From: Promethearchaeia archaeon
GTDB taxonomy: Archaea; Asgardarchaeota; Lokiarchaeia; Sigyniarchaeales; SOKP01
Assembly (NCBI GenBank): GCA_029856125.1
Contig: JAHQWJ010000014.1
Span: forward strand, 159,085 to 223,084
Length of the DNA stretch: 64,000 nucleotides
Direction: 5' to 3'
Below the pieces are notes generated by a model. That model did no database searches and was not told where the DNA came from. It was given only the letters and a program-made list of their open reading frames with translations. Below are positions 22,697 through 26,439 of this stretch, one piece after another (positions within the stretch are counted from its first letter, which is position 1; every line of letters starts with the position of its first letter). A program made the position numbers and the translations under genes.

Positions 22697-22963
22697 TTAC
22701 GAGCTAAGTAGCTGAAAGAGAATCGAAGCGTGAGGGATATAGAATTGATCACGCACTTTAATCACGACAGTATGAAAGTACTCAGCTAAACCTAAGAAAC
22801 CTCGAATAACTGATTCGTCTTCCTCAAATTTAAATACTATCTTAGCAATAGCAGCGCCAGAGCTGAAGTTAGCTTTTTCATAGACTCTTTCGTCAATTAA
22901 GGGAATTTTAAGCTCATTAACAATTTCATATACTCGCTTGATGAAGAGTTCTCTCTTGGGAAT
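22697..22963 (-). CDS. Hypothetical 88-aa protein with putative ATT start (not in ORF track)
   Basis: Open frame (M)PKRELFIKRVYEIVNELKIPLIDERVYEK...ILFQLLSS with coding-like composition, AGGTG 7 nt before the ATT, and a T-rich tract after the stop. Confidence 0.7.
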   Translation of the reverse strand: MPKRELFIKRVYEIVNELKIPLIDERVYEKANFSSGAAIAKIVFKFEEDESVIRGFLGLAEYFHTVVIKVRDQFYIPHASILFQLLSS

Positions 22964-23226
22964 ATTAATACACCTATTATATTGAATACTAATTATTAAA
23001 ATTACAAATGAAATATGATATATAATATATTAGATTTGGAACATTTAATAGTTTATTTTTAACTGTGAAAAATTTTGAAGCATTGAATTTAATTTAGGTA
23101 AAACTATGATACAAATATTATACAAAAATAAAAATATAAATTAATAAACTACTACTATATTACTACTATAGCTATATAGTATTCTTTTAAAAAATATGAT
23201 TAAAATTTTGGAGTAAATGAACTACC

Positions 23227-23880
23227 TTGGTTTCGAAAGAATATAAGAAGATTGAGAGAGTCGTTAATTTTATGAAAAAGGGTTTAACCTCTTTAAGCGA
23301 CGACTTGGAAGAGACGGTTAAAGGGATTACTGATTTTAAAAAATCGTTAAATAAAGCCTTGAAAGATTTGAAAGATGTTTCTCTTGAACAAGGAGTGAAA
23401 ACTGTGAGTACATCCTCTAAGAAAGTTATTGCACCTGTGGATGGTACGGCCAAAACTGCAGCGGCAAGTACTTTATTTAGTTTATTAAGTGGTAGTCCTG
23501 CTCCAGTCCAAGAAATGCCTCCAGCTACCGCAGCTGTAACTTCACCAACTGTAGGTGGCCCCCCTAAAGTTCCTGGAAAGGGACCTCCAAAGAGACCTGG
23601 AGGGAGTAGACCTCCAAAAGCACCCAGCACAGGTGGACCTCCTAAACGAACCAATTTACCTCCGGCGCCAAAATTGCCTCCTAGTTCGGTTGGTGTACCT
23701 CCTAAAGCTCCCGGTTCAAGAGTTGTACAAGCGCCCACATTTGCTAAAAGACCAACGCCCCCAGCAGCACCAGCTGCATCCCCTGCACCAGCAACTCAAG
23801 CAGGAGGAGGTTTAAGTTCTCTCCGAGATGAAATGTTAGAGGAATTAAATCGTTTAAAGAAGATTATGAGAGGAGATTAG
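23227..23880 (+). CDS. Coiled-coil / proline-rich protein with C-terminal WH2-like helix-LKKI motif
   Basis: Heptad-like N-terminus, repeated GPPK/PPK units, C-terminus GGGLSSLRDEMLEELNRLKKIMRGD. The ORF is solid; the function is inferred. Confidence 0.75.
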   Translation: MVSKEYKKIERVVNFMKKGLTSLSDDLEETVKGITDFKKSLNKALKDLKDVSLEQGVKTVSTSSKKVIAPVDGTAKTAAASTLFSLLSGSPAPVQEMPPATAAVTSPTVGGPPKVPGKGPPKRPGGSRPPKAPSTGGPPKRTNLPPAPKLPPSSVGVPPKAPGSRVVQAPTFAKRPTPPAAPAASPAPATQAGGGLSSLRDEMLEELNRLKKIMRGD

Positions 23881-24010
23881 GAGTTAACTCTTTTTCTCAT
23901 ATCTAATACTTATTTTTATACCTTTTTATCGCATATCTTTATAACTTACAAGATTCAATATTTTTAATTCATAACATTTTTAATTATCGATTGTGAACTA
24001 TTTAGTATAG

Positions 24011-24757
24011 ATGGATAAAAACAATTCTATCATCTGCGAAAACAAAATACCAATCGTTGTTCCTAAATGTATAATGGTGTTAGCTGGTCATCCAGATGAT
24101 GAAATAATATCCTGTGGTGGTACCCTTCTAAAATACCAGTCTTTAGGTTCAAAAATAATCGTTGTGGTTGCAACAAGTGGTATTGGGGGGTATGCAAAAA
24201 GTGATCAAAAAGAAGGAATTATTAATCAAAGAAAACACGAGCTTGATTCAGTTCGATCATCGTTGAAATGTGAAATTATCGAGTTAGAATTTCCTAATAT
24301 GGAAATAACCCGAGAAAAAATCTCTAAGATAACAAATCTCATAAGGGACATTAAGCCTCAAGTTATTTTATTGCCTCATCATTCTGATTTTCATCGAGTA
24401 CATCGAAACTTGGCATTAATCTCGAGAGAAGCTATTTATCATTGTTCAACAGGTAAAGCTTATGGAGGATACGAAAGAAACTGGACTCCATTAGGCGTGT
24501 ATTATTACGAAGGACCTTCGTGTAAATTTCAATACATTGAGAGTTCAGTTTTTGTTATAGTAGATATCGAAGAATTTTGGAGTAAGAAAAAAGAGATATT
24601 TAATGTTGCCTACCTTACTCAGAAAGAAGTTCTAGAAAGAGTAATGGAGTGGGCGGAAGATACTGCGATTTTAAGGGGTAACGAAATAAATTCATCGTAT
24701 GGGGAAGCTTTTATACCCGAGACAACTTATACACCACTTAAGCTTTTATTAGTTTAG
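24011..24757 (+). CDS. PIG-L/LmbE family deacetylase
   Basis: GHPDDE, GGTL, R..E, P...DFHRVH and GEAF motifs. Confidence 0.88.
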   Translation: MDKNNSIICENKIPIVVPKCIMVLAGHPDDEIISCGGTLLKYQSLGSKIIVVVATSGIGGYAKSDQKEGIINQRKHELDSVRSSLKCEIIELEFPNMEITREKISKITNLIRDIKPQVILLPHHSDFHRVHRNLALISREAIYHCSTGKAYGGYERNWTPLGVYYYEGPSCKFQYIESSVFVIVDIEEFWSKKKEIFNVAYLTQKEVLERVMEWAEDTAILRGNEINSSYGEAFIPETTYTPLKLLLV

Positions 24758-24817
24758 TATAGATATAAAAAGATTAAATATTGTTAATATAATAAGCGAA
24801 TAAATTGCTAAAATTAA

Positions 24818-25942
24818 TTGGATATTATGGGCAATCTTACTGTTGTTTTAGACATTGGACAGTTTTCAGCAAAAGCGGGTTTTGCTGGCGAAGATATGCC
24901 AAGCCAAGTATTCTTCACAATCGTAGGAAAGCCTAAATATAGACAAATCGATTACGAGTATGGAAGTGCTCGAAAAGAAGACTACTACGTCGGAGATGAG
25001 ATTCAATCTTTAGGACTATACAAAGTGTTATACCCTATTGATAAGGGTGTAATACAAGACTGGGTCTCATTCGAGAAAATAATTGATTACATTTTCTATA
25101 ATTTAAGAGTCGACCCTAGTTTAGTCAATGTCTTATTTGCGGTACATCCTTTGTTTCCTCGCAATAATTTAGAGAAGCTTTTTAAATTATTTCTGGAGAA
25201 ATATCAATGTAATGCGTTTTATCCTGTATTAGATTCCATGCTCACTCTGTATGCTGGTGGATTTCAAACGGGTTTGATAGTAGAGATCGGAGATAGTCTA
25301 ACAAGAATAGTCCCCATCTATCAAGGTTATAAACTTGATCACGCAATTAGAATTCTTGAAATCGGTGGAAGAACGTTAACAAGGTATATGGAAAAAATAT
25401 TAGGTACAAAAGGTTATTCAGCAGATTCTTCTATAAGAAGAGAACTCGTCAGAGCTTTAAAGGAAAAAGCGTGTTTTGTTTCCCTTGATTACAAAGAAGA
25501 TTTGAAGAGAGTTGAACAATACGAAAAAGAGTATTCCCTACCTGATGGTTCTACAATTTCTTTAGCTAGAGAACGATTCGAAGTTCCAGAGTTGCTGTTT
25601 AATCCCTCAATCGAATTAGAAGAATCCTCTCTCCCAGAAGCAATCTTGGATGTAATCGAAATGTGTGACTTAGATGTCCGTCCAGATTTATTAAATAACA
25701 TTTTTTTATCGGGAGGGTCTTCGATGTTTCCAAATCTCAAATCTCGAATATACCAAGAATTAGAATTAGAATTGGCGCGACGTAAAAAGAATAATCAAAT
25801 CATCAAAATAATAGCACCTCGGGAACGTGTTTTCTCAGTTTGGGTTGGAGGATCGATTTTAGCAATGATCCCAGAATTCGAGCAGAATTGGATAAGCAGA
25901 GCGAAATATTTTAACGAAGGTATCCCTGAAGATATTCTTTAA
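24818..25942 (+). CDS. Actin-related protein (Asgard actin family)
   Basis: Collinear with actin: KAGFAGED.P..VF..IVG.P, YVGDE, YPI..G...DW, VPIYQGY, LKEK.CFVSLDY, LPDG, ERF..PELLF.P, LSGGSSMFP, APRER.FSVWVGGSILA. Confidence 0.95.
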   Translation: MDIMGNLTVVLDIGQFSAKAGFAGEDMPSQVFFTIVGKPKYRQIDYEYGSARKEDYYVGDEIQSLGLYKVLYPIDKGVIQDWVSFEKIIDYIFYNLRVDPSLVNVLFAVHPLFPRNNLEKLFKLFLEKYQCNAFYPVLDSMLTLYAGGFQTGLIVEIGDSLTRIVPIYQGYKLDHAIRILEIGGRTLTRYMEKILGTKGYSADSSIRRELVRALKEKACFVSLDYKEDLKRVEQYEKEYSLPDGSTISLARERFEVPELLFNPSIELEESSLPEAILDVIEMCDLDVRPDLLNNIFLSGGSSMFPNLKSRIYQELELELARRKKNNQIIKIIAPRERVFSVWVGGSILAMIPEFEQNWISRAKYFNEGIPEDIL

Positions 25943-26073
25943 ATAATTACTTAAGATTAAAGCATCTATTTTTCAAAGTATCATTTTAATATTACAAGCA
26001 TATTACAATTTTTTAAAAATATTATTCTGATATTATATCTTAGTGGAGTTTCATCTCGATTGGAGAAATAAAA

Positions 26074-26439
26074 ATGGAAGAACCTCAAAATACTAGTTTT
26101 GAACAAAGCAAAATTCTAAAAAACTTTTATAAACCTGACTATTCTGGTCTGTTTAATAAAATAAAAGACATTAAAACTCCGGTAAAAAACGAAATTTTAA
26201 TGACTTTACTTGATGGGAATTGGCATACTGAATTGGATTTGATAAGAGTAGCTAAACAAAAAATGAGATATTTGGGTGCTGTAACCTTAGGGACAATGAT
26301 TCACTCTTTAAACCATCACCTAAAGAACGATTACGTTGAAAAAAGCGTGATAAACGGAAAATTATCTTACAGAATCTCAGATAATTATGTCGGTCTTACT
26401 CGAGCAGCATACAACAAGTATAGGTTTAAAATGGACTAA
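26074..26439 (+). CDS. Hypothetical protein, probable winged-helix fold
   Basis: 'EILMTLLDGNWHTELDLIRVAK...YVEKSVINGKLSYRIS' helix-turn-helix plus wing pattern. Confidence 0.6.
   Translation: MEEPQNTSFEQSKILKNFYKPDYSGLFNKIKDIKTPVKNEILMTLLDGNWHTELDLIRVAKQKMRYLGAVTLGTMIHSLNHHLKNDYVEKSVINGKLSYRISDNYVGLTRAAYNKYRFKMD

Follow-up and report, generated by a model that had tools for sequence, protein, structure and literature searches.

The machinery that would recruit profilin-actin for filament nucleation in Asgard archaea has been stated to be undiscovered (PMC9433394), and the Lokiactin partners given in a 2026 motility paper are only gelsolins, profilins, an ARF GTPase and BAR proteins (PMC13716822). 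Is such a factor encoded by a short gene block of a Promethearchaeia archaeon (Lokiarchaeia, Promethearchaeota; assembly GCA_029856125.1), whose 3.7 Mb genome carries four actin-family genes? The block occupies positions 22,697 to 26,439 of a 64,000-nucleotide stretch of contig JAHQWJ010000014.1 (positions 159,085 to 223,084 of the forward strand), hereafter the window. It consists of four co-directional genes, encoding a protein of 217 amino acids (aa) with a coil, a proline-rich arm and an end helix (the adaptor), a PIG-L-type deacetylase, an actin paralogue and a small winged helix-turn-helix (wHTH)-like protein, and of a divergent gene for an 88-aa protein. All five genes are real and lie where the first-pass annotation had placed them, the four plus-strand open reading frames (ORFs) being separated by 130, 60 and 131 nt (Table 1). 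That annotation had proposed an undescribed system, in which a nucleation-promoting factor (NPF) is coupled to an actin-related protein (Arp). From our analyses we conclude that what is undescribed is a pan-Asgard protein family to which the adaptor belongs, that the locus is no dedicated NPF–Arp module, and that, if the end helix binds actin, its target is Lokiactin.

The Ena/VASP-like layout of coil, proline arm and end helix was confirmed by both structure prediction and conservation. The AlphaFold2 model of the adaptor contains three helices and a disordered arm, with a predicted template-modelling score (pTM) of 0.22, so that the parts are not predicted to pack against one another. Distant orthologues are most alike in the end helix, where 82% of residues are identical; a nine-residue proline motif follows with 78%, the middle helix with 61% and the coil with 47%, whereas the arm reaches 34–39%. 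The contrast between end helix and arm indicates that the former is under selection. The end helix makes five turns, carries a continuous 3-4-4-3-4 hydrophobic stripe and has an invariant methionine and invariant leucines. Proline accounts for 30 of the 101 residues of the arm, with PP as the longest run; PPPP is found in some orthologues, and up to six consecutive prolines in the membrane forms described below. A profile of the adaptor head detected 38 clusters among 1.8 billion proteins, and the layout was common to all 14 of those examined. No Pfam, NCBIfam, PDB or Atlas family accounts for the protein, a PDB search yielded no relative, and neither the adaptor nor the 88-aa family is described in the literature searched, which leaves out most subscription papers. 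The adaptor is therefore a real member of an undescribed family.

The end-helix profile matches 242 of 301 Asgard genomes, mostly once per genome, and the matches examined belong to complete proteins in which the parts come in the same order, some of them soluble and others anchored by a transmembrane segment. The soluble form occurs in Lokiarchaeia, Odinarchaeum, Freyarchaeum and three further families. The membrane form, present in seven other families that probably include Thor-, Atabeya- and Heimdallarchaeia, starts with one or more predicted transmembrane segments and a helical hairpin; behind these come a proline arm, often with runs of 4–6 prolines, and the same helix. Its gene mostly adjoins an rpiA-like gene. 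Comparison of the soluble with the membrane heads revealed no detectable homology. A similar helix occurs internally in 154-aa zinc-finger-type proteins (L157:3750-4214; L158:5663-6121) and terminates another coil/polyproline protein encoded in the host genome; carried by several scaffolds, it thus behaves as a portable docking motif. This second protein, of 147 aa, is encoded outside the window (contig C63:109233-109676, minus strand; L197:2233-2676) and has a coil, true polyproline runs and an end helix that is related to that of the adaptor (E 5e-5) and, by eye, nearer to the F-actin-binding segment of VASP. Its orthologues are found in L. ossiferum (152 aa), Odin and Freya, and a 210-aa protein without Pfam family is encoded just upstream on the same strand in the host genome. 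Tandem multi-pass membrane proteins of ~560 aa were also observed, each with a C-terminal proline arm and docking helix (L156:2289-3959, 4496-6187).

The first-pass annotation had noted a helix with the motif LKKI and compared the protein with WH2-bearing actin nucleators and elongators. The motif is present in the window's adaptor but is not conserved: it occurs in 8 of 35 tails, the others having LKKL, LKSI, LREI, IKEI and more (18 four-letter variants in the 35 tails), and the retained feature is the hydrophobic stripe rather than LKKI. Tails of this type are frequent by chance, since 37 of 3,019 ORFs of the host genome have one within their last 15 residues. In the model, LKKI lies inside the single end helix, without a WH2 linker and without canonical WH2 spacing; neither a WH2 nor a VASP profile of Pfam matched any of the 35 tails, nor did the WH2 profile match the whole adaptor. 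These results speak against a WH2 identity. NPF features are likewise unsupported: the tail is basic, neither acidic nor tryptophan-bearing in 20 adaptor members, and the window's adaptor has no PPP run, whereas some orthologues and membrane forms do. An EVH1 domain is absent, the model being all helix or disordered and without Pfam match. Ranked against 3,260 tails of host ORFs, the adaptor tail came 14th in likeness to the VASP F-actin-binding segment (sequence from PMC10340426), which is suggestive but not significant, and 439th in likeness to the VASP G-actin-binding site. A reading of the tail as an ESCRT MIM1 motif was dropped, because the position that holds the key arginine of MIM1 is an invariant glutamate.

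Like the EVH2 region of Ena/VASP (PMC10340426), the adaptor combines a putative oligomerising coil with a proline-rich stretch and a short helix preceded by a run of glycines, and eight of its helix residues align with the VASP F-actin-binding segment (three identical, four conservative). Unlike Ena/VASP, it lacks EVH1, a WH2-like G-actin site, the RRRK cluster and any profile match, and its coil is N-terminal instead of C-terminal. With WASP, WAVE and WASH, the NPFs acting with Arp2/3, it shares a helical head, a proline-rich middle, an amphipathic helix near the end and a nearby actin-related gene, but not the WH2, the central/acidic tryptophan tail or the long polyproline.

Conserved linkage of adaptor and actin paralogue was found in one family only. 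The counts given here are descriptive, as related genomes are not independent, and carry no statistical test. The two genes lie within 4 kb of each other in 57 of 59 genomes of the window's family, and the pair is kept even without the PIG-L gene in 17 genomes (judged by spacing, and read directly in one); the corresponding count in the sister family is 0 of 6, and on closed or long contigs of that family the distance is 44, 71, 100 or 273 kb. Within the window's family, genes for a topoisomerase and a PAS kinase likewise keep their place beside the block, and opposite-strand genes have been inserted within the block in several genomes. The sister family keeps remnants of the neighbourhood. 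At three of its loci the paralogue adjoins genes for a small GTPase and a VWA protein, and the domain seen in the wHTH-like protein of the window ends 627–792-aa proteins encoded near the paralogue. Closed Odin and Freya genomes and a third one encode a helix protein and only one actin, 280–860 kb apart, and among the loci examined outside the one family no actin gene lay near the adaptor or helix gene. What steadily accompanies the soluble form is the 88-aa gene, not the actin paralogue: in five families the two lie within 4 kb of each other in 54/57, 16/16, 4/4, 5/6 and 3/3 genomes, in divergent, tandem or convergent orientation, although in only 1/6 of the sister family. A dedicated pairing with an Arp-like gene, as originally proposed, is contradicted by the loss of linkage in the sister family and by the distributions, the paralogue having been found in two families only and the end helix being pan-Asgard.

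The paralogue itself is a divergent actin, 42% identical to the Lokiactin of the host genome, which is encoded on contig C63. In a tree built without eukaryotic sequences it forms a monophyletic clade of its own with L. ossiferum UYP44126.1 (support 100/100; 50% identity). It falls outside Lokiactin both by this separate clade and by its ATPase motifs, which are not intact: the phosphate loops are replaced (phosphate-1 reads DIGQF), Gln137 is changed to Asp and His161 to Arg, and weak ATPase activity is therefore likely. The hydrophobic cleft is partly retained. The designation as an actin-related gene agrees with a published tree that puts the UYP44126.1 clade among the ARPs, its gene being transcribed severalfold below Lokiactin (PMC9834061). 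The top 60 PDB matches of the paralogue are all conventional or Asgard actins, without an Arp2 or Arp3 chain. By sequence score it is thus not Arp2- or Arp3-like, and the locus contains no second Arp or ARPC gene. No function has been published for UYP44126.1 (PMC9834061); its gene is flanked by those of a small GTPase and a VWA protein and lies 273 kb from the adaptor gene, and its tag is in neither the proteome nor the co-immunoprecipitation (co-IP) rows among those listed. Because the paralogue was found in two families only, and Odin and Freya have a single, distant actin, we conclude against a dedicated NPF–Arp module.

The 88-aa protein is predicted with high confidence (predicted local distance difference test score 93). 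Its gene starts with ATT (window 22961-22963), and its orthologues with ATG, TTG, ATT, ATC or ATA at the same codon; these non-canonical starts account for its absence from annotations, and the recurrence of ATT, ATC and ATA in several lineages possibly reflects translational control. The L. ossiferum orthologue, UYP44135.1, has an ATG start. Sequence searches of Pfam, PDB and Atlas were blank, and fold searches gave a best Z of 4.4, none above 5, with no PDB match and weak Atlas rows (template-modelling scores of 0.61–0.66), which is no demonstration of a new fold. A SepF-like reading is unsupported, SepF being unlisted among these fold matches. Extra copies of the gene lie away from the adaptor in many genomes, the gene is also present in three genomes of a family in which the head profile found no soluble adaptor, and orthologues with one in-frame TAG occur in three genomes of one genus.

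An annotation error may explain why the adaptor has been overlooked in L. ossiferum. The accession at its position, UYP44328.1, is a 230-aa antisense ORF, collagen-like in UniRef; the true gene lies on the minus strand of CP104013 at ~729.4–730.2 kb (L139:2955-3761) and encodes 268–271 aa, a length that includes several tryptic peptides of 13–25 residues. The spectra of the published Lokiactin co-IP were searched against 5,119 sequences, apparently the deposited annotation, and the adaptor, deposited as an antisense ORF, was therefore most likely invisible to that experiment. For the same reason, we rejected the missing adaptor tag as evidence. With GenBank numbers converted to proteomics tags by an offset of seven, a mapping deduced from the paper's table and two molecular weights, the 88-aa orthologue would be tag 00427 and thus among the roughly 150 most abundant proteins (20.7, compared with 21.7 for Lokiactin). 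Several adaptor orthologues are absent from the protein collection, and the wrong-strand error may affect other Asgard genomes.

We tentatively favour the reading, with a probability of about 0.4, that there is a pan-Asgard tether of which the adaptor is the soluble variant and whose end helix docks most likely on Lokiactin. The head would anchor or oligomerise the protein, either by a transmembrane segment and helical hairpin or as a simple coil acting together with the 88-aa protein. The flexible proline-rich arm would then present the invariant amphipathic helix to a partner conserved in all Asgard archaea, most likely Lokiactin, and filaments would be tethered or fed at the membrane. Our results establish the architecture, its conservation and distribution, the two types of head and the patterns of linkage; we infer the oligomerisation, the partnership with the 88-aa protein and the choice of actin as target. 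A general target would have to be conserved throughout the Asgard archaea, which excludes the neighbouring paralogue from that role; together with the deacetylase and the wHTH-like gene, the paralogue would represent an old neighbourhood kept intact in the window's family. Docking could resemble that of the VASP F-actin-binding segment on filaments or that of arcadin-2 on crenactin. Arcadin-2 of Pyrobaculum (PDB 5LY3, PMC5173319), like the adaptor, has ~200 aa, a conserved C-terminal helix behind a variable linker and a nearby actin-family gene, and this helix binds crenactin. Its binding has been measured, whereas the adaptor is known from sequence and model, has no sequence match to the PDB peptide and is linked to its actin paralogue in one family only. 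Several further observations weigh against a Lokiactin-binding tether. Thirteen other ORF tails score equally well or better against the VASP segment, so that rank 14 of 3,260 is not above a chance tail, and sequence comparison links the adaptor to no actin-binding family, the WH2 and VASP profiles remaining without match. The common origin of the two forms is suggested by the end helix and the layout, their heads being dissimilar. In L. ossiferum the 88-aa orthologue is encoded 263 kb from the adaptor gene and is absent among the Lokiactin co-IP rows listed, down to a ratio of -1.06. Finally, Loki and Odin profilins are reported not to bind polyproline, and some Heimdall and Thor profilins to do so (PMC8410842); the latter would fit the longer proline runs of the membrane forms, as a correspondence only, and the window's adaptor has no such run. 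A bolder proposal would make the end-helix family the actin-assembly factor that Asgard archaea have seemed to lack: a pan-Asgard, VASP-like tether binding Lokiactin, anchored in the membrane and bearing polyproline in some lineages, soluble and paired with an 88-aa cofactor in others, and an archaeal precursor or analogue of the module by which Ena/VASP binds F-actin. This proposal appears unlikely at present.

A tether outside the actin system is only slightly less probable. Its end helix would either self-associate, as the tetramer coil of VASP and the trimer helix of GpsB do, or dock on another pan-Asgard protein, for example an ESCRT or division component. A five-turn helix with a continuous 3-4-4-3-4 stripe is typical of bundle-forming helices, the genes for helix proteins have no actin gene nearby outside one family, and the hairpin of the membrane form weakly matches the CdvA-like, SHOCT and Vps23-core models of Pfam. 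These matches are below cut-off and scattered, as expected of generic coiled coils, however, and no ESCRT gene was recognised beside an adaptor or helix gene in the loci examined; moreover, the near-invariant charged surface positions and the reuse of the helix on other scaffolds appear to favour a shared external partner over self-packing. Lineage-specific co-option, by which the helix would be a general actin-family ligand with the probably ATPase-poor paralogue as its partner or decoy in the window's family, is improbable. It would account for the linkage in 57 of 59 genomes, with no room for a PIG-L gene in 17, for the partly retained cleft and for the remnants in the sister family, yet the unrelated topoisomerase and PAS kinase are steady neighbours too, opposite-strand genes interrupt the block, and the helix is almost unchanged in lineages in which no copy of the paralogue was detected. 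The original model, in which a WH2-bearing NPF switches on the neighbouring Arp-like protein for filament nucleation, is highly improbable. The coil, proline-rich arm and LKKI-ending helix, the shared orientation and short gaps, and the published grouping with ARPs (PMC9834061) all pointed to it, but LKKI is not conserved, the WH2 linker is missing, the tail is neither acidic nor tryptophan-bearing, the paralogue scores best against conventional actins, and the distributions of adaptor and paralogue do not match.

Table 1. Features of the locus, in window coordinates.
Feature	Position	Strand	Basis
88-aa alpha/beta protein gene, unannotated, ATT start	22697..22963	-	Fold model, orthologues, steady neighbour of soluble adaptor
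AGGTG ribosome-binding-like site, 7 nt before ATT of 88-aa gene	22971..22975	-	Position conserved in orthologues
217-aa coil/proline-arm/docking-helix adaptor, soluble form	23227..23880	+	ORF, model, profiles
Adaptor N-terminal long helix, residues 4-50, putative oligomerising coil	23236..23376	+	Model, alignment
Adaptor middle amphipathic helix, conserved, residues 75-87	23449..23487	+	Model, alignment
Adaptor disordered Pro/Ala/Gly/Lys arm, no PPP run	23491..23808	+	Model, composition
Conserved 9-residue Pro motif within adaptor arm	23656-23682	+	Alignment
Adaptor C-terminal amphipathic helix, residues 196-214, near-invariant, pan-Asgard	23812..23868	+	Model, profile
PIG-L/LmbE-family deacetylase, 248 aa, dispensable passenger of block	24011..24757	+	Pfam PIG-L E 4e-21
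Divergent actin paralogue, 374 aa, clade of L. ossiferum UYP44126.1	24818..25942	+	Pfam Actin E 5e-91
121-aa protein, wHTH-like by eye	26074..26439	+	No Pfam family

The deacetylase belongs to the PIG-L/LmbE family (PF02585 at 76 bits, cut-off 28) and has the HPDD motif. The steady topoisomerase neighbour is of type IA with a cysteine-rich C-terminal array (window 26461-28647) and is convergent with the block. A 529-aa HEAT-repeat protein is encoded upstream of the 88-aa gene (window 20986-22575), in only part of the family's loci. A scan of the locus for promoters and terminators with bacterial models, which are ill-suited to archaea, gave chance-level results.

A protein that spans the Asgard archaea, mostly in single copy, and joins a membrane anchor or coil to a proline arm and an invariant helix is a concrete candidate for actin assembly. 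Wrong-strand annotation in the cultured model organism would explain why it was overlooked, and makes the candidate checkable in existing public spectra, those of the Lokiactin co-IP (PRIDE PXD068820) and of the proteome (PXD074767). Should it not bind actin, it would still be a near-universal Asgard protein without assigned function; we regard the adaptor as a serious candidate for tethering actin or promoting its elongation.

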